Shown here one piece after another: positions 4,159-54,019 of a stretch of DNA of 64,000 bases. Numbering within the stretch: position 1 is the first letter of the stretch; every line of letters begins with the position of its first letter. Both the position numbers and the translations under genes were made by a program. Below the pieces are notes generated by a model. It searched no databases. It worked only from the letters and a program-made list of their open reading frames with translations, and was not told where the DNA came from. Source of the stretch: an uncultured Acidobacteriota bacterium (GTDB lineage Bacteria; Acidobacteriota; Vicinamibacteria; Fen-336); the NCBI GenBank assembly GCA_963697835.1, contig CAVOPG010000004.1, positions 84,616 to 148,615 of the forward strand, written 5' to 3'.

Positions 4159-5062
4159 TCAGGCGTAGCGGCGCGCGAGCGACAGCGCCTCGCGTCCGTA
4201 GTGTCCGCCGAAGATCAGGTGGTGGTTGAGCAGGTGGTAGAGCTGATACAGCGGGTTGCGCTCGCGCCACTCGGCAGGCAGGGGGAAGGCCTCGTGATAG
4301 CCGGCGAAGAAGCGCTCGGAGAAGCCGCCGAAGAGCGTCGTGATGCCGAACTCCATCTCGCGGTCGCACGCGGCCGCGGCTGGATCGACGAGGGCCGGGC
4401 CGCGTGTCGTCACGAGCACGTTGCCCGACCACAGGTCGCCGTGGATCAGCGCCGGCCGGGCCTCGTGCGCGAGGAGGGAGCCCAGGCGCTCGCTCAGGCG
4501 CTCGAGGACCCTGCGCTCCTCGCGCCCGATCCGACCCTCCTCCTCGAGCCGGCGCGAAAGCGGCCGCAGGCGCCGCTCCGCGTAGAACTCGGCCCAGGAG
4601 GGGCTCGGGCGATTGTCCTGCGGCGTCGGGCCGCAGTACGTGGTGACCGGGAACCCGAAGACCTCTTGCGTCCCCGCGTGTATCGCGGCGAGCCCCCGGC
4701 CCAGCGCGACGGGGTCGCCGGCCGCGCCCGTCTTCGGCTCCAGGTACTCCATCACGATGCACGCCGGACGAGCTTCGGCCGGAGCCAGGGCGACCAGCAC
4801 TTCCGGGATGGCGAGGCCGGCCCCGGCCTCGCGCAGGGCGCGTAGTCCTCGCGCTTCGCTCAGGAAGAGGTCGGGCGCGCAGTCGTGATTCCACTTCGCG
4901 AACCAGTCGCCGTGCGTCGTGCGAACCCGGGCGGCGTGGTGGATGCAGCCCCCGGCTACCGATTGCAGCTCGAGGACGCGCAGGCGCCGGATCGCCCTCG
5001 GCCTTTCCGATCTCGTCTTCCAGGAACGCGGCGGGTCCTGGCCGCGGGCCGAAGACGCTCAC
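4159..5062 (-). pseudogene. fructosamine/ketosamine-3-kinase family gene, reading frame broken near 4990-5000
   Basis: ORF 4159..4800 carries the kinase core (HGDLWSGNVL, DPAAAACDREMEF). The same frame is open upstream to 5058 and reads VAGGCIHHAARVRTTHGDWFAKWN (nucleotide-binding region). The N-terminus (VSVFGPRPGPAAFLEDEIGKAEG) is in the frame of ORF 4151..5095. A GTG at 5062 overlaps the upstream stop as GTGA. Confidence 0.7.
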
Positions 5063-5547
5063 CGCGTGAGCTCGGCCAGCAGCCCCCGGCAGCACCTGTC
5101 GAGGAGATCGAAGACCTCCTCGAAGGCCTCTTCACCCGAGTAGTAGGGGTCGGGCACGTCGCCGCCGGGCGGCTCGCCGAACTCGCGCATCAGCCGGATC
5201 CGGTCCCGCAGAGGTACCGGGCAACGTCCCCGAAGCTCCTTGAGGTGCCCCCGGTCCATCGCGAGGATCAGGTCGAAGCGCTGGAAGTCGGAGTCCCTCA
5301 CCGCGCGCGCGAGCGAGGTCACGGCCACGCCCCGCCCCGCGCCCACGCGCCGGGCACGCGTGTCGGCCGGTTCGCCCTCGTGATAGCCGTGCGTCCCGGC
5401 CGATTCGACCTCGAAGTCGGAGCCCCGGCCCGCCCGCTCGGCCTGATGGCGGAAGATCGCCTCGGCCAGCGGCGAGCGGCAGATGTTGCCGGTGCAGACG
5501 AAGAGCAGACGCTTCGCGGGTGAAACTCCGGCGTGCCGCACCTGCAC
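5059..5547 (-). CDS. low-molecular-weight protein-tyrosine phosphatase
   Basis: P-loop LLFVCTGNICRSP (CX5R-S) plus the DPYY motif (VPDPYYSG). Length is about 160 aa. Confidence 0.85.
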   Translation of the reverse strand: MQVRHAGVSPAKRLLFVCTGNICRSPLAEAIFRHQAERAGRGSDFEVESAGTHGYHEGEPADTRARRVGAGRGVAVTSLARAVRDSDFQRFDLILAMDRGHLKELRGRCPVPLRDRIRLMREFGEPPGGDVPDPYYSGEEAFEEVFDLLDRCCRGLLAELTR

Positions 5548-5613
5548 ATGATAGAGCGTTCTGCTCGCCGCTTCCGACCGAAGCGCCCGTCTTCAGTAGA
5601 ATCCCGTGCACCG

Positions 5614-6957
5614 ATGAGCGGCATCCTCCTCTTGCTGCTTTCCGCACCGCCGGCGCCGCTCCGCGAGCAGGCCTTCCGGTTGGAGCGCCCGGCGGAGGCC
5701 GTGGCCGTGGTCCGCGCGTCGTGCGAACGGTGTGAATGGGGTGCCCGAGGCCGCGAGGCCGCGGTCCTCGCGCTCTCGGTCGACGGCGCCCTCCAGCAGC
5801 ACCTCGTCCTGACCCGCGGCAAGGAGGGGGAATACCGCGTGCTGCTCGGGGCGCTGCCCGAGGGTGAGCACCGCGTCGCGCTCGCCCTCGACGCGCGCCG
5901 CTCGGCGGGCGGGATCGGGGCCGTTCGCGTCGAGAGCGTGAGCATAGAGGCCGTGGCCGCGGCCGACCCCGCCCACGAGGCGCTCGCCCACGCGCCCATC
6001 GTCCACACGCGGAAGGGCTCGCTCGACCGCTTCTCGGACGTGCCGCTCGTCGCCTGGGTGGAGACGTTCCCGGCCCCGGAAGGCGGCCGCGAGCTGCGCT
6101 ACTCGATCGTGTTCAGCCACGAGGACGGCGGCACCCCGCTCGACCGCCTGATGGCGACCTGGGGCCGCGCGACCGACATCGAGCTCGTCTACGCGGTCGA
6201 GCTCGACGCGGGGGGACGCGTGCGCCGGGCCGAGTACCAGGGCAAGGACCACGTCACGACGGCGTTCGCCGGGCGACGCGAGGGCCGACACCCCGTGCTC
6301 TACGTCGTGACCAGGAACAACATGGTGAGCGACCACGGATCCGGCACGCCGCGCGTGGCGCTCGCCCCCGTTCCCTTCTCGCTCGACGGCGTCTCGCGCG
6401 AGACGGTGATGGACGCCCATCCGTTCACGCACCAGGTCTCGGCGGCTGAGGTGCGGCGCGAGGGCCTGGTGAGGGACGGTGCGAGGCCGGGCTCGAAGCG
6501 GATTCCGGATCCCCGCCGTTTTGCCTTCCTCGAGGCCTGTGGCCGCGTGGACGACACGCGGCTCGCGTTCGACGTCGCCCTCCGGGGCGTGGACGGCACG
6601 CTCCAGTGGCACGCCTCCGACGCGGGTCGCCCGGCCTTCCGCGTCGCGCGCAGCGGCTGCTTCCGCGCCGCGGTCGCGCTCCCTTCCGGAGCGGTGGTCG
6701 GCGACGTGCAGGCGCTGCGCCTGCGCGCCCACACGCGGCCGCCGCGCCGCGGCGAGGCGCCACTGCCGAAGGGCAGGGGCACCGCGCAGATCGAGCGCAT
6801 CAACCGGCTCTTCGGCCTCCGCCCGGACGACACACCCGGACCGAGCCGCTTCGGCTGGACCGAGGGTGCCTCGCTTCCGCCGGACGGACCGGCGCTCGAG
6901 CTCGCCGTGCCCGGCGACAATGACGGAGCCGCGAGTCCTGCCGCTCGGAGCCGGTGA
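5614..6957 (+). CDS. conserved hypothetical protein with N-terminal hydrophobic signal/anchor
   Basis: ATG at 5614 (MSGILLLLLSAPPAP). The composition looks coding and I recognise no motif. The 3' end overlaps the next gene by 38 nt. Confidence 0.5.
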   Translation: MSGILLLLLSAPPAPLREQAFRLERPAEAVAVVRASCERCEWGARGREAAVLALSVDGALQQHLVLTRGKEGEYRVLLGALPEGEHRVALALDARRSAGGIGAVRVESVSIEAVAAADPAHEALAHAPIVHTRKGSLDRFSDVPLVAWVETFPAPEGGRELRYSIVFSHEDGGTPLDRLMATWGRATDIELVYAVELDAGGRVRRAEYQGKDHVTTAFAGRREGRHPVLYVVTRNNMVSDHGSGTPRVALAPVPFSLDGVSRETVMDAHPFTHQVSAAEVRREGLVRDGARPGSKRIPDPRRFAFLEACGRVDDTRLAFDVALRGVDGTLQWHASDAGRPAFRVARSGCFRAAVALPSGAVVGDVQALRLRAHTRPPRRGEAPLPKGRGTAQIERINRLFGLRPDDTPGPSRFGWTEGASLPPDGPALELAVPGDNDGAASPAARSR

Positions 6958-8932: not shown

Positions 8933-8969
8933 GCCGAACGGCTCTCGCTCCGGCCGGCCCACCTGCGGC

Positions 8970-9863
8970 ATGATCCGGCCCATGCCTGGAATCCCCCGAC
9001 GCTTCCTCCTCCCCTCGGCGGCCCTCCTGGCCCTGGCCGGACCGGCCGCCCCCGCGCCCGCCGCCGAGCCCACCACCCGCCTCGTCGTCCGCGGAGACGA
9101 CATGGGCTCGTCGCAGGCCTCGAACGAGGCCGCCGTCCGCTGCTTCAAGGACGGAGTCATGCGGGACGTCGAGCTGATGGCCGTGGGCCCGTGGTTCTCC
9201 GAAGCGGCGCGCCTCCTGCGCGCGAACCCCGGCCTCGACGTGGGCCTCCACCTCGCGCTCACGAGCGAGTGGGAGAACGTCAAGTGGCGGCCGCTCACCC
9301 CCGCCCCCAGCCTCGTCGAGCGCACCGGCTTCTTCTTCCCCATGATCTGGCCGGGACCGAACTACGGGAAGGACCGGGCGCTCAAGGAGCAGCCGTGGAA
9401 GCTCGACGAGATCGAGCGGGAGCTCCGGGCCCAGATCGAGCTCACCAGGCGCGAGGTGCCGCAGCTCAGCCACCTCAGCGACCACATGGGCTTCGAGAGC
9501 CTCGGCCCGGAGGTCGGCGCGCTCGTGAAGCGGCTCGCCGGCGAGTACGGCCTCGACATCGACCCGCAGGCGAACGGAGCGAAGTGGGTGGGCTGGGACG
9601 GGAAGCCGGAGACCTCAGCCCAAAAGGTCGAGAGCTTCGTCCGCGTCCTCGACCGGCTCGGGCCGGGAACGTGGGTGTTCGTCGATCACCCGGCCCTCGA
9701 CACGCCGGAGATGCGCGCCGTCGGCCACGTGGGATACGAGACGGTCGCCGTCGACCGACAGGGCGTGACCGACGCGTGGACGAGCGGCGCGGCGAAGGAC
9801 GCCGTCCGCCGCCGGGGCATCGAGCTCGTCTCCTACAGGGATCTCGTGAAGAAGCGACCATGA
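8970..9863 (+). CDS. YdjC/ChbG-family carbohydrate deacetylase-like protein, secreted
   Basis: ATG at 8970 with a signal peptide (RRFLLPSAALLALAGPAAPAPA). N-terminal VVRGDDMGSSQASNEA and HLSDHMGF resemble YdjC-family metal-binding motifs. Confidence 0.55.
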   Translation: MIRPMPGIPRRFLLPSAALLALAGPAAPAPAAEPTTRLVVRGDDMGSSQASNEAAVRCFKDGVMRDVELMAVGPWFSEAARLLRANPGLDVGLHLALTSEWENVKWRPLTPAPSLVERTGFFFPMIWPGPNYGKDRALKEQPWKLDEIERELRAQIELTRREVPQLSHLSDHMGFESLGPEVGALVKRLAGEYGLDIDPQANGAKWVGWDGKPETSAQKVESFVRVLDRLGPGTWVFVDHPALDTPEMRAVGHVGYETVAVDRQGVTDAWTSGAAKDAVRRRGIELVSYRDLVKKRP

Positions 9864-9967
9864 GCGACGCCCACAGCCGCCGCCAGGGCCGGGGCGTGGT
9901 GCCGGACGAAGAGGCGGGCCGGGCCCCGAGGTGCCGTAGACTCGGCCCCACGGGAAAGTAGGCCCTC

Positions 9968-10715
9968 GTGCAAAGTCGACGGCGTTCCCTGGCGGCGACT
10001 CTCCTGGCCACCCTCGCGCTCTCGGCCGCGGTGGCGGCAAAGCCCCCCGCCGCCGTCCCCGCCTCGCCCCTTCCCCTGGCGACGCCCGAGTCCCAGGGGA
10101 TGTCGTCCGAGAGGCTCGAGCGTCTGCACGCCGAAGTCCAGAGGTTCATCGACGAGGGCAAGCACGCCGGCGCCGTCTCCCTCGTCGCCCGCAACGGGAA
10201 GATCGTGGACTGGCGCACCTACGGAAAGCGGGACCTCGAGGCCGATCGTCACCAGCGTCGCCGCCCTCATCCTGCTCGAAGAGGCGCGCTTCAAGCTGGA
10301 CGACCCCATCGGGACACCTCGGGGCTCACCTACGACTTCGGCGACACCCCCGTCGAGAAGATCAACCACGACGCGAAGCTCGCCGAGGCCCCCTCGCTCG
10401 CCGACTTCGTGACGCGCGTCTCCCGTCTGCCGCTCGCCCACGAGCCCGGCGAGCGCTTCACCTACGGCGTCTCCACCGACGTCCTCGGTGCGCTCGTGGA
10501 GAAGGTCTCGGGCTGGACGTTCGGCCAGTTCCTCGAGGAGCGCCTCGCTCGGCTCGATCGGCCAGTTCGGCTGGGCGGGGGCGGCCACCACCTACGCCAA
10601 CCTGGACCCGCAGGAGAAGACGGTCGCCCTCCTCTTCGTGCAGCACTTCCCCTTCGACGAGCACAAGATCTTCTGGCGCTTCTCCACCCTCGCTTACGCG
10701 GCGATCGTGAACTGA
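9968..10715 (+). pseudogene. serine hydrolase (beta-lactamase/PBP-like family) remnant with three internal deletions
   Basis: The signal peptide and N-terminus (GAVSLVARNGKIVDWRTYGKRDLEA) are in the frame of ORF 9968. PIVTSVAALILLEEARFKLDDPI follows in the next frame. TSGLTYDFG...LPLAHEPGERFTYGVSTDVLGALVEKVSGWTFGQFLEERL is back in the first frame. The C-terminus GSIGQFGWAGAATTYANLDPQEKTVALLFVQH is in ORF 10488..10715. The S-x-x-K catalytic segment is absent. Total length is ~750 nt against the ~1.2 kb or more expected. Confidence 0.7.
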
Positions 10716-10746
10716 GGCGCCCCTTCCCGCACGGCGGGAAGCAGTC

Positions 10747-11811: not shown

Positions 11812-11951
11812 GGCTCTCTCCCCGGCGGCGGCCCCGAGCTTACAGCGGGCGAACGCGAGTCGCCTATAATCCCCCGAACGACCCTTTCTGCCATGCGGCC
11901 GCCGGTTCCCGCTCTCAGCCATCCTGCCCTCCTCGCCGCGGGTGCGCCGTG

Positions 11952-12620: not shown

Positions 12621-12734
12621 TCCGGCTCCAGGGCGCCCGGAGAATCACGAAAACTCCAGGATTTCTTCAGGACTTCCCTCGCGTTTGTCGCTATACTCCC
12701 GCCAAAACCAGCGAGCCGACACTGGGAGGTGCGC

Positions 12735-14129: not shown

Positions 14130-14147
14130 GGGCGGGCCCCGCCGGCC

Positions 14148-14177
14148 CAGAGCGGGGCGCCTCGGCGCCCCGCTCTG
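14148..14177 (+). terminator. GC-rich perfect hairpin downstream of the PAP2-like gene
   Basis: CAGAGCGGGGCGCC-tc-GGCGCCCCGCTCTG gives a 12-14 bp stem 19 nt after the stop at 14129. There is no U-tract. Confidence 0.45.
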
Positions 14178-14267
14178 CGTCCAGTGGCCGAGGCAATCAG
14201 CCGAATCAGTCGCATCTACCGGAGGGCGCGCTCCGCCGGGCTAGAATCGGGCGGAGGAGTTCTTCGA

Positions 14268-17809: not shown

Positions 17810-21657
<3,848 letters not shown>

Positions 21658-23004: not shown

Positions 23005-24353
23005 TCAGCTCGCCGACGGCTTCGCGGGGGGCGCCTCGAGCTTCTTCCTGAGGGACTTGATCGTGGCTTCCGGAGCGCTGGCCCGGGGGCAGCGACTCGG
23101 CGTACGCGAGCGCCTGCTCGAGGGCCTCGCGCGAGGCCGCGGCGTCGCCCTTCGCGGCGAAGATCTCCGACCGGGTCTGGAGCACGCGGACGCGGCGCGG
23201 GCCGGCGACCTTCGGCAGCGCACGGTTCGACGCGGCGAGCGCCTCGTCGGCCTTCTTCATCTCGAGGTAGGCGACCGCGAGTCGCGCCGGCGGGTTGTAG
23301 TCGTCGGGCAGGTCGTTCTCGGATGCCTGCAGCATCGGGACGGCCCGCTCCGGCTGCCGCAGCTCCAGGTAGGCCGAGAGCCGGTGCGAGTCGAAGACGG
23401 CGCGCTGCTCCGGTGTCTTCGCCGCGGCGGCCTGCGCCTCGAGGAAGGCCGCCCATCCCTCGGCGTCCTTCGTGGCGCCGGCCGCGTCGCCCGCGTCCTT
23501 GCGGGCCTGGATCAGGGAGAGGTAGCTCGTCGAGACGTCGTCGGCGGCTGCGCCGAGGCCGGGAGTCGGCCAGCGTCTCGCGCGTCGCCGTCTCCATCTC
23601 GGCGAGCGCTCCCGCGCGGACCGCGTCCTCCTTCCCGAGGTCGAGCGCGCAGGCGAGCCCGCTCCGCGCCACCATGACCGACGCCGGCGAACCCGACAGG
23701 CGGGGCAGGGCCTCGCGGGCGAGAGCCAGACACTTCGCCTCCTCGTGGAGCGACTGGTGGAGGAAGAGAAGGGCGCCGACGGCCCGGCCATAGGGCGGCC
23801 AGACGCTCGGCGCCTGGTCGAGGGCCTCGCGGTAGGCGGCCGCGGCCTCGGCGTCCTTCCCCTCACCGCTCCGGCGGTCGGCCCGCAGGAGGGCGGCCTC
23901 CGCCGGGGAAGAAGGAGCGGCGCCCGCGACGGTGGCGCGCGCCTCGTCGAGGAAAGCCCCCATCTCGGCGACGGTCATGCCGTCCACCCGCTGCATCACC
24001 ACGGACTCGTCGGCGGCGTTCAGCACGTAGAAGGTGGGCAGGGCGTCCAGGGAGAGTCGCTCCAGGTGCGCCGCGTTCTTCTCTTCGTCGACGTTCAGTT
24101 CGAGCCAGACGAACTGTCCGGCGCGGCTCGTGAGGGCGGGGTCGGTGAAGACGAATGCCCTCATCGAGCGGCAGGTGTGTCACCAGGGGGCCCAGGCTTC
24201 GATGAAGAGCGGGAGCTTCTGGGCCCGCGCCTCGGCCAGGGCTTTCGCATAGTCGTCGGCGACGAAGGAGAGGACCTTCTCGGGGCCATCGGCGGCGGCG
24301 GGGGCCGCGAGCAGGCCGAGGGCGAGAGCGGCGACGGGAATCGGGATGCGCAT
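23005..24353 (-). pseudogene. secreted thioredoxin-fold + TPR protein with TGA at the first CxxC position (candidate selenoprotein) and two additional frame breaks (~23560, ~23090)
   Basis: ATG 24353 with a signal peptide. The sequence reads ...PLFIEAWAPW-TGA(24180-24182 complement)-HTCRSMRAFVFTDPAL, in frame with ORF 22827..24164. The TPR-like C-terminal part continues in ORF 22925..23866 and then ORF 23005..23223 (ends ...IKSLRKKLEAPPAKPSAS). Confidence 0.65.
24122..24173 (-). other. extended imperfect hairpin 7 nt downstream of the in-frame TGA (SECIS-like candidate)
   Basis: On the mRNA, UGCC-GCUCG-au-GAGGGC-auuc-GUC-uucacc-GAC-ccc-GCCCUC-a-CGAGC-CGCG gives about 17 pairs in three stacked helices. 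The fold was drawn by hand, and the apical loop features were not validated against a SECIS model. Confidence 0.3.
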
Positions 24354-24387: not shown

Positions 24388-25638
24388 CTACACCCCGGCC
24401 CCGGGAGGGTCAAGGCTCAAGACGCTGGGGTGAGGACAGTGCAGACCGACGCACAGATCGGCCCGCCGATGTTGAAGGTGGCGGCGGCGCGGGCGTCCTG
24501 TCACCTGCAGCTCTTTCGGCGCCCGACCCTGCAGCTGCCAGGCGCACCAGCCGATCATGGCGACACCGGTGGCCCCGATGGGGTGGCCCTTGGCGATGAG
24601 GCCGCCCGAGGTGTTGATGCCGCACTCGCCGGCGGGCGCCGCCTTGCCGTCGACCCAGTAGCGCGCGCCCTTCCCGTAGCCCGCCTTGCCGATGACCTCG
24701 GTGCCGATCGCGCCCATGACCGTGAAGCAGTCGTGGAGCTCGGCCACGTTGACGTCCTTCGGCGAGACGCCGGCCATCGCGTAGGCCCCGTTCATCGCGG
24801 CGTAGGCCCCCTTCGGGCGCAGCACGTCGCGGCCTTCCTTCTTCAGGGGGTCGGTGGCCTGGCCCCAGCCGGCGATCCTCACGCAGTCCTTCTTCGAGAC
24901 GCCGAGCCGGGCGAGGCCTTCCTCGGTGGCGACGATCAGGCCGGCGTAGCCGTCGGTGATCTGCGAGCAGTCGAAGGTCTTCAGCCGCAGTCCGTCCGCG
25001 ATGTAGCGGTTGATGCCCTCGATCTGGCAGGCCTTCTCGACCGTGAGGTCCACGTTCCGCATCTGCGCGTAGGGGTTGTGCTTCGCGTTCCGGTACTCCT
25101 GGACCGCGATCGCGGCGAGGTGCTCCTCGGTGTAGCCGTGGGTCCCCAGGTAGGCGTCCATCACCTCGGCGAAGAGGTGCGGGAAGACGAAGACCTTGCC
25201 CGGCCGCTCGTCCGGGTGGGAGAAGTAGCCCAGCACCTTGCCCACGAGCTTGCCGTCCATCTTCCCGTCGGCGTCGCGCATCTTCTCGTAGCCGACCGCG
25301 ATGCCGGCCTCGCCGAGGCCGCACTGCAGCTTCTGGATCACGGAGAGGACGGCCTGCCCACCCGAGGCGCAGGCGTTCTCGACCGACTCGATGGGCTTCG
25401 CGCCGAGGCCGGGCACCTGGGCCACGAGGCCGGCGAGGAGGCCCTGCTCGTTGAGCGAGATGTTGCAGACCGCGCCGATCGAGGCCACGTCGAGGGCGGA
25501 GGCGTCGATCCCGATCTCCCGGCACGTCCCGGAGACGGCGTTGGCCACGATCTCGGGCACGGTCATGCCCATGAGCTTGCCGAACACCGACTGGTGGTAG
25601 GCGGCGATGTAGACGGGCTTCACGAGACCCTCCCGCAC
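24388..25638 (-). CDS. thiolase (SCP-x/nsLTP-type acetyl-CoA C-acyltransferase), with the last ~30 codons apparently out of frame
   Basis: Catalytic motifs are ENACASGG, HDCF and GHPIGATG. The likely start is GTG 25623 (VKPVYIAAY) after GGGAGGG. The expected C-terminus DARAAATFNIGGPICASVCTVLTPAS (stop at 24417) is found one frame over from about 24480. Confidence 0.8.
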   Translation of the reverse strand: MREGLVKPVYIAAYHQSVFGKLMGMTVPEIVANAVSGTCREIGIDASALDVASIGAVCNISLNEQGLLAGLVAQVPGLGAKPIESVENACASGGQAVLSVIQKLQCGLGEAGIAVGYEKMRDADGKMDGKLVGKVLGYFSHPDERPGKVFVFPHLFAEVMDAYLGTHGYTEEHLAAIAVQEYRNAKHNPYAQMRNVDLTVEKACQIEGINRYIADGLRLKTFDCSQITDGYAGLIVATEEGLARLGVSKKDCVRIAGWGQATDPLKKEGRDVLRPKGAYAAMNGAYAMAGVSPKDVNVAELHDCFTVMGAIGTEVIGKAGYGKGARYWVDGKAAPAGECGINTSGGLIAKGHPIGATGVAMIGWCAWQLQGRAPKELQVTGRPRRRHLQHRRADLCVGLHCPHPSVLSLDPPGAGV

Positions 25639-36073: not shown

Positions 36074-37207
36074 ATGGAACGCACTCACTCGCTGACGTCG
36101 TTCTCCGACGACCAGCTGCTCCATCGCCTGTCGGATCTGCTCGGTCAATCCCGTCGCGACGAGGCCGATCTCGTCGCTCACATCGGCGAAGTCGACTCGC
36201 GCCGGCTCTACGCCCGGGAAGCCTCTCCCTCGATGTTCGCGTACTGTACCGAGGTCCTCCACCTCTCCGAGGCCGAGGCCTACCTCCGGATCGCCGCCGC
36301 CCGCGCCTCGCGAGAGCATCCCCTCCTCCTGACCATGCTGGCCGACGGGCGGCTGCACCTGACGGCCATCGCAAAGCTGGCGCCGCACCTGACCGTGGAG
36401 AATCGGGAGGCTCTCCTGAAGCAGGCCGCCCACCGCTCGAAGCACCAGATCGAGGAGCTCGTAGCGGAGCTTTCGCCCCGTCCGGATGTTCCGGCGGTGA
36501 TGCGGAAACTGCCCGGCCGCCGGGACGGGACGACGTCGTCGGAGGGAGTTGCTTCAGTCGATCGCCAACTCCGTCCGGACCGAGTTGGCGTGCGCGAGCC
36601 CGAGCTGCGTCTGGACGGAGGTGCGGCGGCCGGGTTCGAACTCCGTCCGCACGGAGCGGCAGCGCTCCCAGGGTCTCGGCCCGCGGTGGTCGAGCCCCTC
36701 GGCGCCGCCCGCTACAAGGTCCAGTTCACCGCCTCCGCCGAGCTTCGCGACAAGCTCGAGCGACTGCGGGCCCTCATGCGCTCCTCGGTGCCCGACGGCG
36801 ACCTCGCCGCGATCGTCGAGCAGGCCGTCACCGAGAAGCTCCAGAGGCTCGAGGCTCGGCGTTTCGCCCAGACCCGGGCGCCGAGGAAGACTCTCTCGGA
36901 GAGCGAAACCTCCCCCAAGACGCGCCGGATCCCGGCCGCGGTGAAGCGGGCCGTGAACTTGCGGGACGGAGGCCGATGCCGCTACGAGGACGAACACGGG
37001 AGACGTTGCACGGCGCGCCGGGGGCTCGAGTTCCACCACCGCTACCCCTTCGGCCAGGGCGGTGACCACTCGGTCGCCAATGTCACCCTCGCGTGTCGAT
37101 GCCACAACGGTTACCTCGCCGAGGTCGACTACGGCAGGGAGGCCATCGCTCGGCATCGCCGCCCGGAGACCCGTCCGTTGAAGCCCACGCCGTCTCCGTC
37201 GCCGTGA
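36074..37207 (+). CDS. HNH endonuclease with a DUF222-like N-terminal domain
   Basis: The C-terminus is RDGGRCRYEDEHGRRCTARRGLEFHHRYPFGQGGDHSVANVTLACRCHN. The gene follows a lower-GC 286-nt spacer. TATATT lies 6 nt before the ATG and there is no SD. Confidence 0.75.
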   Translation: MERTHSLTSFSDDQLLHRLSDLLGQSRRDEADLVAHIGEVDSRRLYAREASPSMFAYCTEVLHLSEAEAYLRIAAARASREHPLLLTMLADGRLHLTAIAKLAPHLTVENREALLKQAAHRSKHQIEELVAELSPRPDVPAVMRKLPGRRDGTTSSEGVASVDRQLRPDRVGVREPELRLDGGAAAGFELRPHGAAALPGSRPAVVEPLGAARYKVQFTASAELRDKLERLRALMRSSVPDGDLAAIVEQAVTEKLQRLEARRFAQTRAPRKTLSESETSPKTRRIPAAVKRAVNLRDGGRCRYEDEHGRRCTARRGLEFHHRYPFGQGGDHSVANVTLACRCHNGYLAEVDYGREAIARHRRPETRPLKPTPSPSP

Positions 37208-40521: not shown

Positions 40522-40527
40522 CCTCGC

Positions 40528-43081: not shown

Positions 43082-43153
43082 AGCCGCTCGGTGGTGAACA
43101 TCCGCCGCGTCTCCTGGGTCATGAAGCGGCGCTCGAAGAGGCGATAGGTCACG

Positions 43154-45694: not shown

Positions 45695-45831
45695 TTGACA
45701 CCTGCGGCGCTCCCGTTTCAAAGGCCCTCGACGCGACGAGTCGGCGCCGGGGTGATTGCACTCTGATTCGAATCTGGTCTAGCGTTGCGTGTGACCGAAG
45801 GGCTGGATCGATCGAATCAGGGGAGGTCGGC

Positions 45832-47457
45832 ATGGGCGTCGTCTTCGCTGCATTGTTGGTCGCGCTCTCGCCCGCAGGCGGAGCCTACGGACAAGAGGCG
45901 CCATCGGGGACGGATGCGTGCAAGGGCGTCGCGCGAATCGAGCTGCCGGACGCGAAGATCGTGTCGGCCGGGACGGTTCCCGCCGGAGCTTTCACGCCGC
46001 CGGCGAACATGACTCCGTGGCTGGTGGGCGATCCCTCCTTCTACAAGACGCTGGCCGCGTTCTGCCGCGTCGTCGTGAGAGCGACGCCCAGCGCGGATTC
46101 CAACATCCAGATCGAAGTGTGGATGCCGCTGGAGAGCTGGAATGGGAAGTTCCGGGGCCAGGGCAACGGAGGGTTTGCCGGGGAGATCGGCTTTCGCTCG
46201 ATGGGGGCTGCCGTGGCCCAGGGGTACGCGACGGCGGGAACGAACACGGGTCACTCCGGAGGAGCGACGGATGCGAGCTGGGCGCTCGGTCATCCGGAGA
46301 GCGTGACCGACTTCGGGTACCGCGGGATCCACTCGATGACCCAGATCGCCGGCGCGGCGATCAAGGCGTTCTACGGCAAGGGTCCGGAGCATTCCTATTT
46401 TGCGAGCTGCTCGAACGGGGGGCGGCAGGCGTTGATGGAGGCGCAGCGCTTTCCCGGGGACTACGACGGCATCCTCGCGGGGGCACCAGCCAACTTCTGG
46501 ACGCACCTGCTGACGAAGGCGGTCGCGGACGCGCAGGCGACAACCCTCGATCCGGCGAGCTACATCCCCGCCAGCAAGCTCCCGGCGATCGCGAAGGCGG
46601 TGAATGCCGCGTGCGATGCCCAGGACGGCGTGACCGACGGAGTGGTGAACGACCCGAGGCGATGCCGCTTCGATGCGGCGACACTCCTCTGCCAGGAACG
46701 CGATTCGGACGCGTGCCTGACGGCGCCGCAGGTGACGGCCCTCAAGAAGCTGTACGAGGGGCCCCACGACTCGCGCGGGCACGAGATCTTCCCGGGATAC
46801 GTGCCGGGCGCCGAGGAAGGCGACGGGGGCTGGGGGCCGTGGATCACGGGCCCGGCGCCGGGCAAGAGCCTGCTGTTCGCTTTCGGCACCGGCTATTTCG
46901 CCAACATGGTCTACGAGCGAGCCGACTGGGACTACCGGACCGCGAACATCGAGCAGGCCCTGAAGGCGGCCGAGGAGAAGACGGCGCACAAGCTCGACGC
47001 GACGGACGCGAACCTGGCCGCCTTCAAGTCACGAGGGGGGAAGCTGGTTCTCTACCACGGCTGGAACGACCCGGCGATCTCGGCGCTGAACACGATCGGC
47101 TACTACGACAGCGTGGTGAGCCGGCTGGGACGGCCGGAGACGGATGCCTTCGTGCGGCTCTACATGGTCCCGGGGATGCAGCACTGCGGCGATGGCCCCG
47201 GCCCGAGCTCCTTCGGGCAGTCTGGCGCGGCGCCATCGAACGACCCTCGGCGCGACGTCTTGCTGGCGCTCGAGGAGTGGGTCGAGAAGGGCAGCGCCCC
47301 GTCCGTGATCGTCGCGACGAAGTACGTGAACGACGATCCAGCAAGGGGCGTGCAGACGACGAGGCCGCTCTGTCCCTATCCGCAGGTCGCAAGGTACAAG
47401 GGCCAAGGCGATCCCAACGACGCCGCCTCTTTCGTCTGCGCGCCAGCAAGTCAGTGA
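45832..47457 (+). CDS. tannase/feruloyl esterase family alpha/beta hydrolase, secreted
   Basis: Motifs are WNGKFRGQGNGGFAG, the nucleophile region YFASCSNGGRQ, and the C-terminal PLCPYPQVARYKGQGDPNDAASFVC. Confidence 0.8.
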   Translation: MGVVFAALLVALSPAGGAYGQEAPSGTDACKGVARIELPDAKIVSAGTVPAGAFTPPANMTPWLVGDPSFYKTLAAFCRVVVRATPSADSNIQIEVWMPLESWNGKFRGQGNGGFAGEIGFRSMGAAVAQGYATAGTNTGHSGGATDASWALGHPESVTDFGYRGIHSMTQIAGAAIKAFYGKGPEHSYFASCSNGGRQALMEAQRFPGDYDGILAGAPANFWTHLLTKAVADAQATTLDPASYIPASKLPAIAKAVNAACDAQDGVTDGVVNDPRRCRFDAATLLCQERDSDACLTAPQVTALKKLYEGPHDSRGHEIFPGYVPGAEEGDGGWGPWITGPAPGKSLLFAFGTGYFANMVYERADWDYRTANIEQALKAAEEKTAHKLDATDANLAAFKSRGGKLVLYHGWNDPAISALNTIGYYDSVVSRLGRPETDAFVRLYMVPGMQHCGDGPGPSSFGQSGAAPSNDPRRDVLLALEEWVEKGSAPSVIVATKYVNDDPARGVQTTRPLCPYPQVARYKGQGDPNDAASFVCAPASQ

Positions 47458-47466
47458 GGGCGGGGG

Positions 47467-49686
47467 TCAATCGACGAGGCTGAAGCCTCCCTTGAGGCGG
47501 ATGTCGCGCGAGGAGGCCCCGACGAGCACTTCGAAGGCGCCGGCCTCCGCGACCCAGTCCCCCTTGCCGGGGTCGAAGAACGACATGGCGGACGGGTCCA
47601 GAGTGAAGGTCAGGGTCCGGGTCTCGCCGGGCTGCAGCATCACGCGACGGAGTCCCTTCAGCTCCTTCTCCGGGCGAGCCAGGCTCGACTCCACGTCGTG
47701 AAGGTAGAGCTGGACCACTTCGGCCCCGGCACGGGTGCCGCTGTTCCGGACCTGCATGCTGATCTCCACCGTGCCCGCCCGCCTTCACCGTCGGCGTGCT
47801 GATCGTGAGGCCGCTGTATTCGAACGTCGTGTAGGAGAGCCCGTACCCGAACGGGAACAGCGGCTCCTCCTTGCGCGAACCCGCGGTAGCCGACGAAGAT
47901 GCCTTCCCCGTATGCGACGTGCAGGTCCTCGCCGGGATAGTGGCCGTAGGCCGTTCCGTCCTCGATCCGCCGGGGGAAGGTGACCGGGCAGCTTCCCGGA
48001 GGGGACGGCGATGCCGAAGAGCAGGTCGCCCACCGCGTGGCCCGCCTCCTGCCCGCCGTACCAGGCGTAGAGGACGGCCGGAACGTGCTCGATCCAGCGG
48101 GTCATGGCGATCGGTGCGCCGGCGGCGACCACCACCACGATGTTCCTGTTCACGGCCGCCACCGCTCCGACGAGATCGTCCTGGCCGGCCGGCAGGTCCA
48201 TCGAGGCCCGGTCGAAGCCCTCGGATTCCAGCCGGGACGAGTAGCCCAGCACCATCACCACCGCATCCGATCGGGCGGCCAGTGCCACGGCTTCATCGCG
48301 CGCGACTCGCGCCTCGGCGCCCGCGTCCTCGCCTTCCATCGCGACGCCCAGGGCGTAGCTCACTTCGATGCGGGCGCCCGCGGCCTCCTTGATGCCCGCG
48401 AGGGGCGTCACGGCGTCCTTCGGACGCACCAGGGAGCTGCCGCCACCACCCGTGCGCGCCACCGCGGCGCCAGGTCCGATGACCGCCAGGGAGCGGATCT
48501 TCGCCGAGTCGAGCGGGAGCAGGCGTCCCTCGTTCTTCAGCAGGACCATGCTCTCGGTGGCCGCCCGGCGCGCCACCGCGCGGTGCTCCGGCGTTTCCGC
48601 TTCCCCCCCGCCGGCGTGCGGGTGGTCGAAGAGTCCGGCCGTGAACATGACGCGCAGGATGCGGCGAACGCTTTCGTCCACCGCGCTCTGCTTCACCTCC
48701 CCCGAGGCGACGGCGGCCAGCACCTTCTCTTCGGTCAGCCATCCCCCGTCGTTGCCCGCCTTCCGCGTCGCCGGCCGGGCGAGCCAGCCGCGCATCCTCT
48801 CGCCGCCGGGCATCTCCAGGTCCATGCCGGCGTCGATGGTCCCGGCGGTGCTGTACGTGCTGCCCCAGTCGGAGATGACGAAGCCCTTGAAGCCCCAGCG
48901 CTTCCTGAGCGTCTCGGTGAGCAGGAACGGATTCTCGGCGCACCACTGGCCGTTCACCTTGTTGTAGGCCGACATCACGGCCCAGGCACCAGCCTCTTCC
49001 ACCGCCGCCCGGAAGGCCGGAAAGTAGATCTCGTTGAGCGTGCGGACGTCGATCTTCTCGTCGATGCGGTGGCGCTCGAACTCCTGGTTGTTGGCGGCGA
49101 AGTGCTTGACCGAGGGGATGACACCCTCGCCCTGAACGCCCCGGACGTAGGCGACGCCCATCCGTGCGGCCAGGTAGGGGTCCTCTCCGTAGCCCTCGAA
49201 GTTCCGGCCCCAGAGCGGCGTGCGGCTGATGTTCACCGTGGGCGCCAGGATCATGTCCCGCCCCAGCGCCTTCACCTGCTGCGCGATGACGCGGCCCTCG
49301 GCCTGGACCAGGTCGACGTCCCAGCTCGACGCCATTCCGATGCCCGCGGGAAAGGCCGTGGCGTAGACCGGGGCCGTAGCGGCCGCGCTCGTGACGGCGG
49401 ACGAGCCGGCCCAGTTGCGCACACCCATGGGGCCGTCCGCCATCTTGATGGCGGGAATGCCGAGGCGCTCGTTGGCGCAGCTCTCCATCCAGCCCGAGCC
49501 GGCCAGCATGCGCGCTTTCTCCCCGGGGGTCATGCGCCCCAGCAGATCCTCCGTGCGCTGTTCCGCGGTGAGCTGCGGGTTCTTGTAGGCCGGGGGCGAC
49601 GTGTCGCCGGGCGCCTGACCCGAGAGCGCGATCCCCGACAGGGTGAAGACGGCGACGAGGCCAAGGAGCTGAAACAAGCGAGTCAT
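47467..49686 (-). pseudogene. GH3 beta-glucosidase with three closely spaced frame breaks (~47780-47995)
   Basis: ATG 49686 follows GGAGGT and a signal peptide is present. The catalytic region is KGFVISDWGS. ORFs 47785..49956 and 47467..47769 are in the same frame. The conserved KLP/VTFPRRIEDGTAYGHYPGEDLHVAYGEGIFVGYRGFAQ/EEPLFPFGYGLSYTTFEYSGLTISTPTVKAGG/TVEISMQVRN runs through the two other frames between them. Confidence 0.8.
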
Positions 49687-49709
49687 CGTGACCTCCGTGG
49701 CGAGCCGTG

Positions 49710-52329
49710 TTACTTCAGGCCCTCGATGAGGTACAGCTCGGAGAGGTTCCGGATGAACGAGTAGGCGTACGACTTCCCGTCGGCGCTGACGGCGAGATAA
49801 GGGAGGCGTCCGACGCCGGCCGGGTCCGGGGGCACGAGCTCGTGCAGCAGCTCCCGGCGACCCGTGCCGAGATCCAGACGATGGACCTGTAAGACCAACC
49901 CCCGCATTCGGGCGAGATGGAGCGAGCGTCCGTCCGTGCTCCAGCCGATGGGCCACTCTCCCGGCTCGATGCCTGGGAGCGGCCGGGACTCGCCGCCGTC
50001 GATGGGTTGAACCAAGGCCTTCCCGCTCCGGAGGACCGCAACCAGGGAACGGCCATTCGGAGAGACGATCGCTGCGACCATCCCCTCGGGACCGATGGCG
50101 CGAGGATCACCGCCGTCGACGTCCTGCGCGTAGACCTTGGAGGCGCCTTGCGACTCGGCGGCAAAGAGGAGGCGGAGGCTGTCGGGAAACCAGCGCGCCC
50201 CCCAGATAGGTCAGGCCAGGCCGAGTCAGGTCCTTGGCCTGCCCGGCCCCGGTGGGGAGGAGGATCAGTCGGGACGGTGACGTGAGGATGGACAGGGCCC
50301 ACTTGCCGTCCGGAGAGAGGGCCTGGGCCACGACCGTCGCCGAGGCGAACCGCGGGCGACCCGTCGGTCGGGCGCAGGTACGTCGAGCCACCCTCGCCCG
50401 CGCCCTCCGGGAGCTCCGTGAAGAGGACCCGGGAGCCGTCCCTCGAAAGGTCCGCCACCTGCGACATCCCCAGCCAGGTGAGCTCGCGCTCCTTCGATTC
50501 GCCGGGGGCCCGCGCGACCATGTCGTAACGAAAGTTGGGGTGGCCCACGAGCACGCTCCCGTTGCGCGAGACGTCCTCGAGGTCGAGCTGTCCCATCACC
50601 CTCAAGACGAGCCGCTCTTCTCCCCCGAGGGTCACCGCGCGGAGAGCCTTGAACTCGCCGCCCCTCGCGGCGGTGAACCAGACTTCCCGTCCGTCGGGCC
50701 GCCAGGCGAGGCCGTACAGGTCGGCCCAACCGGTCGAGAGCGTCTTCGTAGCGCCCGTCCGGTCGACAGCGACGACGGAGCCCGCGGAGAAGGCCAGGAT
50801 TGGATCCGCGTGGTCGACGAAGGCGACCCAGTCTCCCCGGGGTGACACCCGGGCGTGAGTGATTCGCCCCTTGCTCTCGTAGAGCATCTTCCCGATCGGG
50901 AACTCCAGGCGATCGACGCCGTCGACGAGGTGCACCACGGCGAGGCTCCGCGCCGTCGGGAGACCAGTCCGCCCACGCGACGTTCTCGAGGACCTCGCGC
51001 GGCGCGCCCCCGGCGAGCGGCACGCGGCCGAGGGTCGCGAAGAGGCCCTGGGCGAGACCCACCGCCAGCTCGCTGGTGGAGGAGACCGCGTGCACCACCG
51101 CGGCAGCGCAACCCGAGGGAACGTGACTCGCGGCTGTCGATGCGGGCGGTGAACACCTCGGAGGGTTCGCCCCTCCAGGCCGCGTCGTAGACGATCGTGT
51201 TGCCGTCCGGTGCGAAGCGCGCGTGGCCTAGGGTGCCGCGGTCGAAGGTGAGGCGGCGGTAGGTCGGTGGCTCGGCCGGCGCCTTCGTGCCGAGCGTGCG
51301 GTCGGCCAGGACACCCAGCGCGACACCGGCCACGAGGAGCGCGCCGATCGAAGACGGCACGCCGGCCCCGCAGCGCCGCAGCAGGGATGGCCGGCACCGC
51401 CGTGCTCGTCCCGGTGGCCGTGGCCAGCGCCTTGAGGTCGAAGGCCAGGTCGTGGGCGGATTGGAAGCGCTGCTCGGGCCGCTTCTCGAGGCAGTGGCTC
51501 ACGATGCGTTCGAGCGCCGGCGGCAGGGCCCGGGTCGTCTCCTGGAGGTCGGGCGGCTCCTCCTTGAGGATCGCGTGCATCGTCTCGGCGGCCGACTCCC
51601 CCTGGAAGGCCCGGCGTCCCGAGACCATCTCGTAGAGGACCGCTCCGAACGAGAAGATGTCCGATCGCGCGTCCGCGGGGAGGCCGCGGACCTGCTCCGG
51701 CGACATGTAGCCGACCGTTCCCATCACCGTCCCCGGCTCGGTGCCGGGAGAGAGAGTCGGCGAGTGGGTGTCGTCGGAGCTCGGGGCGATCGTCTGGCGG
51801 GCCAGGCCGAAGTCCAGGATCTTGACCCGGCCCTCCCGGGTCACGAACAGGTTCTCGGGCTTGAGGTCCCGATGGACGATCCCGTGGTCGTGGGCCGCGC
51901 TGAGGCCCTCGGCGATCTGGGCCCCGTAGTCGACGGCCTTGCGGACCGGCAACGGGCCGCCGGTGATCGCGCGCCCGCAGTGTCTCGCCCTCCAGCAGCT
52001 CGGTCACCGCGTAAGCGACGCCGTCCGCCAGCCCCGAAGTCGAAGATGGCGAGGATGTTCGGATGGGACGTCGCGGCGACGGCCTTGGCCTCCCGCTCGA
52101 AGCGCGCGAGGGCGACCGGATCCTCCGAAAGGTGCGCGGGAAGGACCTTGACCGCCACGTCCCGCTCGAGCTTTGCGTCCCGGGCGCGGTAGACCTCGCC
52201 CATGCCGCCGGCGCCGAGGGGCGCGACGATCTCGTACGAACCGAGCTTCGTGCCGGAGGCCAGGGCCAATCCGTCTCCGTTGATTGTGGAGTACGGCGTC
52301 CATTCTCGACCGCGGAGCGCGGTTGTCAA
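49710..52329 (-). pseudogene. Ser/Thr protein kinase with C-terminal TolB/WD40-like propeller, decayed paralogue with at least 7 frame breaks
   Basis: Kinase motifs are spread over ORFs 51841..52329 (GAGGMGEVYRARD), 51228..52007 ([11 protein letters not shown]) and 49715..51952 ([29 protein letters not shown]). The TM segment and propeller run through ORFs 50632..51360, 50265..51098, 49715..51952, 50107..50391 and 49710..50081. Confidence 0.8.
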
Positions 52330-52395
52330 CCGACCGGCGGGGATCCCGCTCCCTGCCGATCTCAGCCCCCTGCCGAGGCCGCCCTGCCGGGTCCC

Positions 52396-52425
52396 TTGAC
52401 ACCGGCGCCGGAGGCTCGATATGAT
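52396..52425 (+). promoter_or_regulatory. sigma70-like promoter of the ArsR-family operon
   Basis: TTGACA (52396-52401), an 18-nt spacer, then TATGAT (52420-52425), with the ATG 11 nt downstream. The inverted repeat TCAACC-caat-GGTTGA spans the start codon and is a possible operator. Confidence 0.45.
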
Positions 52426-52436
52426 TCATCAACCCA

Positions 52437-52802
52437 ATGGTTGAATATTCGGCGGTCCGGCTCAGCCGGACGTTCAGCGCTCTCGCCGATCCGACGCGTC
52501 GGGCCATCCTGGCCCGGCTCCGGACCGGCTCCCTCCGCGTCACCGAGATCGCGGCGCCGTTCGACATGTCCCTGAACGCGGTGTCGAAGCACCTCAAGTC
52601 TCTGGAGAGGGCGCGCCTCGTCCAGCGTGAGGTACGCGGCCGCGAGCACTACTGCTCGCTCGAGGCCGGGCCCCTGGGCGACGCCGCGGAATGGATGTCC
52701 GCGTACCGCGAGTTCTGGGAGAAGCGTCTCGACGCGCTGGAGCATCTGCTGGCGGCGAAGCGGACGGCTCGGTCGCGCCGGATGAAGAAGAGAGAGCGAT
52801 GA
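52437..52802 (+). CDS. ArsR/SmtB-family transcriptional regulator
   Basis: FSALADPTRRAILARL ... SLNAVSKHLKSLERARLV (wHTH). Confidence 0.85.
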   Translation: MVEYSAVRLSRTFSALADPTRRAILARLRTGSLRVTEIAAPFDMSLNAVSKHLKSLERARLVQREVRGREHYCSLEAGPLGDAAEWMSAYREFWEKRLDALEHLLAAKRTARSRRMKKRER

Positions 52803-53233
52803 CCTCGACGCCTCTCCGGATCGTCGTCGCGCGCGTGTTGTCGGCGTCTCCCGAGGAGGTGTTCGACGCCTGGACCGACCCGGAGAGCCTGGCCGTCTGG
52901 ATGTGCCCGGGCTCGGTGAAGGGGTCCGTCGTCGAAGTGGACGCGCGGGTGGGTGGTCGCTTCCGGATCGTCATGGAGGGTCCCGACTGTGACCACGAGC
53001 ACACGGGCGAGTACCTCGTGCTCGACCGTCCGCGCCGGCTGGTCTTCACCTGGATCTCCGCCGAGACCCACGGCCGCGTCACGACGGTCTCGGTCGAGAT
53101 CCGTCCGCACGGGGCGGGACGGACCGAGCTGACGCTCACTCACGAGGGCCTTCCCGACGAGACCGCTGCTCTCAGACATCGCAACGGCTGGGGGGACATT
53201 CTGGAGAAGCTGGAGAGGCACTTGAGTCGGTGA
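52799..53233 (+). CDS. SRPBCC/AHSA1-domain protein
   Basis: ATGA overlap with the arsR-like stop. Family-like sequence is SPEEVFDAWTDPESLAVWM ... GRFRIVMEG ... GWGDILEKLERHL. Confidence 0.7.
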   Translation: MTSTPLRIVVARVLSASPEEVFDAWTDPESLAVWMCPGSVKGSVVEVDARVGGRFRIVMEGPDCDHEHTGEYLVLDRPRRLVFTWISAETHGRVTTVSVEIRPHGAGRTELTLTHEGLPDETAALRHRNGWGDILEKLERHLSR

Positions 53234-53286
53234 CGGGGGCAATCTCGAGAGAAGGCCAGCGGACCGGCCTCCAGTGAGGTAGGCAG

Positions 53287-54019
53287 ATGAAAGACGACGG
53301 CAGCACGGGTATGAGTGACCACAAGGTGGTTTCGCACGAAGAGTGGCTGTCCGCGCGAACGGCGTTCCTGGCAAAGGAGAAGGAGTTCACGCGCCTGCGT
53401 GACGACTTGAGCCGGCGACGCCGCGAGCTCCCGTGGGAGAGGGTCGACAAGCCGTACGTGTTCGACGGGCCCGGCGGCAAGGAGACCCTCGTCCAGCTGT
53501 TCGGCAAGCGGAGCCAGCTCGCCGTCTACCACTTCATGTTCGGCCCCGACTGGAAGGAAGGGTGTCCAGCACTGCTCGTTCTGGGCCGACAACTTCAGCG
53601 GCATCGGCGTTCATCTCGATCAGCGCGACCTGGCCTTCGTCGTGGTCTCCCGGGCGCCGCTCGCCAGGATCGAGCCGTTCAAGAAGAGGATGGGATGGAC
53701 CTTCAAGTGGGTCTCGTCTGCCGCGACTGATTTCAACTACGACTATCAGGCGTCCTTCACCCCCGAGCAGACCCGCAGTGGAGCGGTCTTCTACAACTAC
53801 GCGAAGACGGACATGGGCTTGACGGACCGCGAGGGTGTGAGCGTCTTCTACAAAGACGGCCAGGGCGCGGTCTTTCACACGTACTCGTGCTACGCGCGGG
53901 GGATCGACCTCCTGAACACCGCCTACAACTTCCTCGACCTCGCTCCCAAGGGGCGAGACGAGGACGCCCTGGCATCGTCGCAGGCGTGGGTGCGGCACCA
54001 CGACAGGTACGAGGACTGA
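53287..54019 (+). pseudogene. DUF899 thioredoxin-like protein, one frame break near 53560-53570 inside its CxxC motif
   Basis: ORF 53287..53730 reads ...YHFMFGPDWKEGCPA and then goes out of frame. The conserved continuation CSFWADNFSGIGVHLDQRDLAFVVVSRAPL...WVRHHDRYED is in ORF 53642..54019. Confidence 0.7.

Follow-up and report, generated by a model that had tools for sequence, protein, structure and literature searches.

Clustered +1 frame breaks in eight genes of a high-GC acidobacterial contig: probable insertion-biased consensus errors in a long-read assembly

RESULTS

Seventeen frame breaks in eight genes

The window analyzed here, a 64,000-nucleotide (nt) stretch of DNA, lies on a contig of 71% GC whose host is a Vicinamibacteria-like acidobacterium, and the nearest relatives of the window include Microflora Danica long-read MAGs. 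Comparison with intact reference orthologs (82 to 92% nucleotide identity) places 17 frame breaks in eight genes of the window, every one of which shifts the frame by +1 (modulo 3). In nucleotide alignments to these orthologs, the lesion is a single extra base at 16 of the 17 sites; the exception, in the GH3 gene at ~47876, is a net change of -5 nt. An earlier, sequence-only reading of this DNA had listed 17 breaks of one polarity, all of which were recovered where it had put them, and had taken each for one extra nucleotide, a description that fits every site but the middle GH3 break. Extra bases are given below in square brackets on the sense strand of the gene, and coordinates are those of the window.

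On the minus strand, the FN3K (fructosamine-3-kinase) gene runs from a GTG start at 5062 to a stop at 4159 to 4161 and holds an extra C at 4984 (GCG[C]CTG), which appears as a single 1-nt gap against L164 (92% nucleotide identity). On the same strand, the prolyl oligopeptidase (POP) gene (19907 to 17810) carries an extra C at 19015 (CTCG[C]AGC; a 1-nt gap in 12 of 12 aligned homologs), and the OYE/NADH:flavin oxidoreductase gene (21070 to 19996) carries an extra T at 20920 (GCC[T]GCT; a 1-nt gap against L086 and L101). The thioredoxin-TPR gene (24353 to 23005, minus strand) is broken twice, each time with a 1-nt gap against L086. An extra C lies near the 3' end, at 23063 (CCA[C]GAT), and the GC3 signal of the last ~20 codons, beyond this break, is in another frame; the other extra base lies in a variable linker and can be placed only to a 13-nt span (23557 to 23569), where the flanking protein lengths equal those of L086 and the GC3 frame switches at 23558. 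The SCP-x-type thiolase gene (25638 to 24417, minus strand) has an extra C in its tail, at 24500 (GTGA[C]AGG; a 1-nt gap in 11 of 11 aligned homologs).

The GH3 beta-glucosidase gene (49686 to 47467, minus strand) has an extra G at 47776 (GGC[G]GGC) and an extra C or G at 47986 (span, 47985 to 47988; CTGCC[C]GGTC), each a 1-nt gap in 14 of 14 homologs, and correction at the latter site joins GKLP to VTFP in the protein, so that the conserved GKLPVTFP motif is regained. The middle GH3 break (47874 to 47878) leaves the window five columns short of all 14 homologs in the alignment, with GGGTTC running directly into GCGCAAG where the homologs have GGGTTCGACAAGCGCAAG. Either 5 nt have been deleted here, or an in-frame loss of 6 nt is combined with the insertion of one G. 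The adjacent Ser/Thr kinase-TolB-propeller gene (TTG start at 52269 to stop at 49710, minus strand) contains seven extra bases, all of them 1-nt gaps against L081 and L082: C at 50195 (GCG[C]GCT), G at 50331 (GTC[G]TGG), G at 50946 (GGA[G]CCT), G at 51104 (GCT[G]CCG), G at 51349 (TTC[G]ATC), C at 51971 (GCG[C]GCG), and T at 52030 (GGC[T]GGC). On the plus strand, the DUF899 gene (53287 to 54019) has an extra A at 53568 (TCC[A]GCA), which alignment to the syntenic locus L163 (91% nucleotide identity) shows as a 1-nt gap. Some of the junction bases proposed earlier were off by 1 to 4 nt, such as those of POP, which reads CTCG[C]AG, and DUF899, which reads CC[A]GCAC.

Polarity, clumping, and sequence context

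The agreement in direction of 17 of 17 breaks has a two-sided binomial P value of 1.5e-5. The breaks are also clumped, as had been claimed: the median gap is 618 nt, 11 breaks fall inside 6 kb, and 0 of 20,000 random placements were as extreme (P < 5e-5). They occupy two patches (19.0 to 24.5 kb and 47.8 to 53.6 kb) and a lone site at 5.0 kb, and the clumps cross gene boundaries, in that the three GH3 breaks, which lie within 210 nt at its 3' end, are followed by 2.2 kb of clean sequence and then by seven breaks within 1.8 kb of the adjacent kinase gene. A GC3-based frame-tracking scan, combined with Pfam searches on every gene, found zero breaks between 28.6 and 47.4 kb, in line with the earlier claim, and no further small breaks or -1 breaks anywhere in the window. 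Three positions flagged by GC3 were rejected, with 36544 and 36678 both lying inside an intact open reading frame (ORF) with an internal direct repeat and 60901 being the true GTG start (MRVLFVSDTHLG) of a Metallophos gene. Two sets of adjacent same-strand genes that lie in different frames and were considered as -1 breaks (ArsR/AHSA1/DUF899/PpoB2 and epimerase/fucose pyrophosphorylase) proved to be separate genes, and scanning the window for Rfam families and tRNAs gave no matches.

The inserted base copies a neighbor at only ~4 of the 17 sites and does not at the other ~13, and runs of at least four identical bases occur at none of the 17; the earlier estimate that about half of the insertions extend a homopolymer is thus not borne out. 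Since the inserted bases are mostly unlike their neighbors, replication slippage does not account for them. A common motif, slippery sequence, in-frame stop, or A/T run is absent across the insertion sites, which agrees with the prior reading that the shifts lack slippery sites and stops, and methylation-type motifs (e.g., GCWGC and CCWGG) are not common to them either. The sole context feature that the insertion sites share is a bias to CG/GC steps.

Apart from the eight genes, the window contains the remnant of a beta-lactamase-family gene (9968 to 10715), in which large internal deletions change the frame three times, once in the opposite direction; no full-length homologs of it were found among the loci compared. 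The claim that no break goes the other way is thus accurate for the 17 breaks and the GC3 scan, and it misses this remnant, which had not been listed.

Restored proteins and selection on the broken genes

Removal of one base per site gives a kinase of 850 amino acids (aa), equal in length to its ortholog P0001 (850 aa; 91% identity). The corrected FN3K likewise matches P0241 (both 300 aa; 90% identity), and the corrected DUF899 protein matches P0121 (both 243 aa; 93% identity), with its CPHC motif regained. Pfam matches on the corrected genes are single end-to-end stretches: Peptidase_S9_N forms one stretch in POP (19 to 397), Oxidored_FMN covers positions 2 to 337 of 342 in the OYE gene product, DUF899 covers 1 to 224 of 224, and the Thiolase_C_1 match grows from 13 to 120 to 13 to 142 of 144. 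The orthologs are single frame at every break site, and no breaks occur at 80 GH3 homolog loci or at 80 POP homolog loci. Ortholog-to-ortholog indels in the kinase are all multiples of 3, and the window kinase, with its seven insertions, has zero in-frame stops and zero out-of-frame deletions.

The broken genes show no sign of relaxed selection. On the window branch, the kinase has accumulated 28 synonymous and 19 nonsynonymous changes, compared with 44 and 21 on the branch of the intact L081 gene, and private replacements at otherwise invariant residues (two in POP, four in GH3, and four in the thiolase) are not above those in intact orthologs. An evolutionary signature of loss of function is absent from the window lineage.

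The same signature in other contigs

Nucleotide alignment revealed the same kind of lesion in L166, an ENA contig that is independent of the window and bears a Flye-style name (88% nucleotide identity), where 11 single-base insertions, mostly G/C and mostly outside homopolymers, fall within 640 nt of an ortholog. The C[G]/G[C] context bias is common to the window and L166 (combined P = 3.5e-4). The GC3 frame-tracking scan, with short-read contigs as the control, yielded 43 frame-break candidates in 90.6 kb (31 of +1 and 12 of -1) at five "contig_N" loci, taken as long-read assemblies on the basis of their naming and of PMC12313526, and 8 candidates in 331 kb at 26 loci of the short-read type. 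The density of candidates is thus ~20-fold higher in the contigs with Flye-style names. A homology-based scan of ORFs at all loci was dropped for counting polarity elsewhere, given the noise from paralogous kinases and antisense shadow ORFs.

DISCUSSION

Consensus errors as the favored explanation

The sequence-only reading had offered two explanations, insertion-biased consensus errors in weak assembly and real pseudogenization with an unusual mutational spectrum, and had not chosen between them. In total, the observations outlined above uphold the first and lend no support to the second. Based on the directly observed positions and nature of the lesions, the restoration of ortholog-length proteins, the absence of relaxed selection in the broken genes, the mostly nonslippage character of the insertions, and the recurrence of the signature in L166 together with its rarity in short-read contigs, we conclude that the breaks very probably arose as insertion-biased errors of the consensus in weakly supported patches of a long-read metagenome assembly and that the genes would be intact in the organism.

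We posit the following sequence of events. Long, error-prone metagenome reads were most likely the source of the contig, and the consensus would have been poorly supported in the two patches and at the 5.0-kb site. There, the consensus step would have retained spurious bases, mostly a G or C between two unlike bases and often making a CG or GC step. Each spurious base would move the frame by +1, such that a gene caller reports eight fragmented genes where the cell would have eight intact ones. The Microflora Danica long-read MAGs were built from Nanopore reads only, assembled with Flye and passed once through Medaka (PMC12313526), and we infer that the window, too, belongs to a long-read, probably Nanopore-only, assembly, in which the break patches may be low-coverage or strain-variable stretches.

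The lesions resemble known indel errors of long-read assemblies (Kastor, PMC12007338; ARAMIS, PMC8574707; a Nanopore R10.4 evaluation, PMC9262707) in that single-base indels split intact genes, are visible against orthologs, can occur several to a gene, and are concentrated in weakly supported sequence. They differ in kind from the errors that dominate published profiles. Residual errors in polished Nanopore assemblies are mainly homopolymer deletions (PMC12007338), and G/C is lost from homopolymers in high-GC PacBio assemblies (PMC8574707), whereas nearly all of the lesions here are insertions, mostly outside homopolymers, G/C rich, and biased to CG/GC steps; a spectrum of insertions alone, outside homopolymers, thus departs from the textbook profile. 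Two other observations count against consensus error, namely, that one lesion is a net -5 and not a simple insertion and that the gene at 9968 to 10715, with its large internal deletions, could represent genuine decay.

Could the extra bases be real?

Under a second explanation, very recent and genuine pseudogenization, a process that adds single nontemplated bases would have inactivated eight genes in this lineage, the candidate sources being error-prone Ku/LigD end joining after double-strand breaks or a mutator polymerase. The lesions are, after all, truly present in the sequence, the degraded beta-lactamase-family gene in the same window suggests that this genome may undergo some decay, and bacterial nonhomologous end joining can add single nontemplated nucleotides. 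We nonetheless regard this explanation as very unlikely. Genuine bacterial pseudogenes in decaying genomes, such as that of Mycobacterium leprae, reflect deletion-biased decay. The eight genes resemble such pseudogenes in being interrupted by frameshifts, and the beta-lactamase remnant fits the class; in contrast, the eight lack stop codons and relaxed selection, and their nonsynonymous/synonymous ratio is not elevated. Where a mixture of deletions, nonsense changes, and frameshifts in either direction, typically at repeats or homopolymers, would be expected, the +1 shift is the sole type (17 of 17) and ~13 of the 17 lie outside any repeat. One 2.6-kb gene bears seven hits and yet no stop codon or out-of-frame deletion, and the clusters disregard gene boundaries. 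Further, the loss of 8 of ~55 genes, if scaled genome-wide, is one that a free-living soil bacterium could hardly sustain. Finally, the signature is found in a different species' contig with a Flye-style name and is nearly absent from short-read contigs, which points to method and not biology. If the extra bases were real and recent, they would amount to a burst of nontemplated single-nucleotide insertions, packed into a few kilobases, in a wild Vicinamibacteria population and so rapid that no other trace of decay remains, a prospect that we consider extremely improbable. Desiccation-induced breaks joined by error-prone Ku/LigD repair are one possible source of such a burst, and its mutational spectrum would be the opposite of the usual bacterial deletion bias.

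Could the extra bases instead stem from coassembled strains, either as minority alleles or as products of sites at which reads of diverged strains were merged, i.e., as an artifact of population heterogeneity? The clusters do coincide with differences in gene order from close relatives: L081 lacks GH3 between the kinase and a tannase, and L086 and L087 differ from the window by a rearrangement of the 15- to 26-kb region. Merging of real alleles, however, should yield substitutions and in-frame indels and not +1 insertions alone, and it leaves the even denser run of insertions in L166 unexplained; we see only a slim chance that strain mixing accounts for the breaks.

Bypass at the level of expression, in which programmed +1 ribosomal frameshifting, transcriptional slippage, or editing renders the genes functional as written, has a negligible probability: the shifts are all in one direction, and the frame moves +1 as in the prfB type of frameshifting, but one gene would need seven shifts, the orthologs encode the same proteins in one unshifted frame (such that these are not conserved recoding sites), and the sites show no common motif and, unlike those of the prfB type, no conserved shift site with a slippery, hungry, or rare codon, no in-frame stop, and no upstream Shine-Dalgarno-like stimulator, nor is there the long A or T run of transcriptional slippage.

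Consequences for annotation

Having weighed these alternatives, we return to the consensus-error explanation. At face value, the contig suggests 15% pseudogenes generated by an exotic, insertion-only spectrum, and the main value of the analysis is as a warning. The error profile documented here, in which high-GC contigs carry single-base G/C insertions that cluster and lie outside homopolymers, is unlike the commonly cited homopolymer deletions and is relevant to pseudogene counts, coding density, and the training of gene models on such MAGs.

With the frames corrected, eight protein sequences also become usable, and a probable selenoprotein comes to light that would be cut short by automatic annotation. 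The thioredoxin-TPR gene, whose start had been put at 24164, in fact starts at 24353 and reads through an in-frame TGA (24182 to 24180) that had been missed. This codon, the one apparent nonsense lesion in the eight genes, lies at the CxxC site, has a putative hairpin downstream, and is conserved in L086, and the gene product is probably a selenoprotein.

Seventeen frame breaks of one polarity

The window has a G+C content of 71%, and its genes are densely packed. Third-codon-position GC (GC3) in the true frame is about 0.92 to 0.98, so the coding frame is evident from the sequence itself. The sequence-only reading had reported 17 small frame breaks of a single polarity, and all 17 are indeed +1 modulo 3 (p=1.5e-5), with clumping well past what chance would produce. 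No further small break, and no -1 break, was seen in the window with Pfam, in all other gene-sized frames, or with a Viterbi GC3 frame tracker. The window scan flagged three more sites, which proved on inspection to be false positives.

In single-frame Pfam matches, the domains of the prolyl oligopeptidase (POP), OYE reductase, DUF899, GH3, and Ser/Thr kinase genes run on from frame to frame, and the breaks were then checked by nucleotide-level alignment to intact orthologs. For the kinase, a stitched 850-aa protein served as the ortholog query and matched orthologs of 850 aa (91% identity) and 852 aa (86% identity). The kinase-bearing contigs L081 and L082 (92% and 88% DNA identity to the window, respectively) align with the window gene with exactly seven 1-nt gaps (positions 52030, 51971, 51349, 51104, 50946, 50331, and 50195), and the remaining kinase indels among the three sequences are all multiples of three. 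Gaps of 1 nt were likewise found in GH3 (47986 and 47776; 14 homologs), POP (12 homologs), OYE reductase (2 homologs), thiolase (11 homologs), thioredoxin-TPR (two sites; 1 homolog), DUF899 (53568; contig L163), and FN3K (4984; contig L164). One extra nucleotide, as had been claimed for every break, thus accounts for 16 of the 17; the exception is GH3 near 47876, where the 14 homologs reveal a 5-column gap on the window side (net -5) instead of a 1-nt gap. Once corrected, each protein gives a single unbroken match over the full length of its Pfam families, and DUF899 (243 aa) and FN3K (300 aa) equal their orthologs in length. The GTG start of FN3K (5062, minus strand, 5059-5065) overlaps the stop of an upstream low-molecular-weight phosphotyrosine phosphatase gene as GTGA, an arrangement suggestive of translational coupling; the upstream gene in L164 likewise overlaps FN3K, by 4 nt.

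The claim that no break goes the other way holds for the small breaks. A badly damaged beta-lactamase-family (serine hydrolase) gene that had escaped the earlier list (9968-10715, plus strand) retains four conserved blocks in alternating frames; its three frame changes, one of opposite sign, are large deletions rather than small breaks. Relative to PDB 7uda, about 14, 37, and 140 residues are missing, the catalytic Ser-x-x-Lys among them. This remnant is either a true pseudogene riddled with deletions or the product of a larger defect in the assembly.

Mutation or error?

Are these breaks real mutations? Read on the sense strand of each gene, roughly 7 of the insertions are C, 6 are G, 2 are T, and 1 is A; a further one, at the ambiguous thioredoxin-TPR site, was provisionally taken as a C. 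About half had been thought to extend a homopolymer, but approximately 13 of the 17 are flanked by two unlike bases, the others double one base or lengthen a 2-base run, and none of the 17 sites lies in a run of at least 4. Half of the insertions give rise to a C[G] or G[C] step, versus the 25% expected by composition. Bacterial indels in nature arise chiefly by slippage at runs and short repeats; the insertions in the window are mostly nontemplated, which argues for error.

Selection points the same way. With L082 as the outgroup, the window branch of the kinase carries 28 synonymous and 19 nonsynonymous changes, and the branch of the intact L081 gene carries 44 and 21. A gene drifting neutrally accumulates an excess of nonsynonymous changes, at a ratio well above 1, and a kinase that had been drifting for the time needed to gather seven indels should have come close to it. 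Private replacements at otherwise invariant residues of POP, GH3, and thiolase are no more numerous in the window than in intact orthologs, and the corrected frames of the eight genes contain no in-frame stop except a conserved TGA in thioredoxin-TPR. Layout, too, argues for error in that lesions track sequence patches rather than genes: three fall within 210 nt at the GH3 3' end, none in the next 2.2 kb (the remaining GH3 and the kinase end), and then seven in 1.8 kb.

Two truncated kinase matches led to L165 and L166, ENA contigs with Flye-style names. In L166, from a different species (88% nucleotide identity), 640 nt of the kinase ortholog hold 11 single-base insertions, mostly G/C and nonhomopolymer, with the same CG/GC-step bias, and this recurrence of the signature again argues for error. 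The L165 kinase has two single-base deletions. Frame breaks are many in both contigs (L166, 9150-9800; L165, 235-2720 and 3500-6000), and the L165 CN_hydrolase gene is called as three fragments. When the GC3 frame tracker was run on every fetched high-GC locus, 26 short-read-type contigs (331 kb scanned) yielded 8 candidates (+1 to -1, 6:2), and five loci with Flye-style "contig_N" names (90.6 kb) yielded 43 (31:12). Neither GH3 nor POP was broken in any of the homolog loci examined, 80 for each gene. Compared with a species-level genome collection, GH3 has its nearest relatives in Vicinamibacteria/Acidobacteriota MAGs at no more than 81% amino acid identity, several of them from the Microflora Danica long-read project. 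That project assembled Nanopore reads alone, using Flye and a single Medaka round; its authors checked low-coverage MAGs for Nanopore-associated errors (PMC12313526).

Proposed explanation

Taken together, selection, mechanism, layout, and recurrence back the view, which we hold with high confidence, that insertion-biased consensus errors in locally weak parts of a long-read metagenome assembly produced the breaks and that the organism itself carries all eight genes intact. The original observation is accurate and statistically solid, yet it describes an artifact. We posit that such errors would arise where the assembly is locally weak, at patches where read support may be reduced or mixed, which would fit the differences in gene order there. 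The break patches coincide with gene-order differences from close relatives: L086 and L087 have a rearranged 15-26 kb region, and in L081 (2742-2950) a tannase directly follows the kinase and the 2.2-kb GH3 gene, which separates the two in the window (47457-49712), is absent. The GH3 insertion point thus varies by strain or species and sits exactly at the break cluster. In published profiles, homopolymer deletions dominate residual Nanopore errors (PMC12007338) and G/C homopolymer deletions dominate high-GC PacBio assemblies (PMC8574707); in contrast, the window and L166 show an insertion-only, nonhomopolymer spectrum and thus a less familiar error mode. Possibly, but not necessarily, the insertions have a cause in common with the GH3 net -5 event and with the large deletions in the beta-lactamase remnant.

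Genuine recent pseudogenization by a nontemplated insertion process is improbable, given that the selection data, the density of lesions inside single genes, and the recurrence of the signature in another Flye-style-named contig all contradict it. A consensus drawn from a mixture of strains, itself a variant of the artifact explanation, strikes us as slightly less probable still. Programmed frameshifting or slippage is effectively excluded because the orthologs are unshifted and the sites have no common feature, neither a slippery motif nor a stop (as had been noted) nor an A/T run. What the finding offers is a set of corrected gene models and a warning about errors of this kind.

A probable selenocysteine codon and other genes

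Thioredoxin-TPR had been started at 24164; its actual start codon is ATG 24353, which opens a signal peptide, and the gene runs to 23005 on the minus strand. An in-frame TGA (24182-24180) occupies the first Cys position of CxxC (WAPW-TGA-HTC), and when Cys is put in for it, Thioredoxin_7 aligns over the site. L086 matches the window nearly base for base at and around the TGA (whole gene, 82% identical). In the window, a stable hairpin (-31.1 kcal/mol, z=-3.8; region 24120-24185, minus strand) starts some 10 nt beyond the TGA. UxxC thioredoxin-fold proteins are a known kind of bacterial selenoprotein, and the TGA is most simply read as the selenocysteine codon of such a protein, probably with a SECIS element. 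Annotation from ATG 24164 would therefore truncate the protein.

The broken kinase has an intact paralog 3 kb away (55049-57742, minus strand; Pkinase plus PD40/TolB propeller, 897 aa). The stop codon of this paralog is followed in the same frame by 73 open codons (54830-55048) that show strong GC3 and have no Pfam match. Finally, an HNH-like gene (36074-37207, plus strand) has a GC3 of 0.84, below that of its neighbors, and contains a direct repeat (CAACTCCGTCCGGACCGAG / GAACTCCGTCCGCACGGAG, about 36567-36655); the gene may be foreign.
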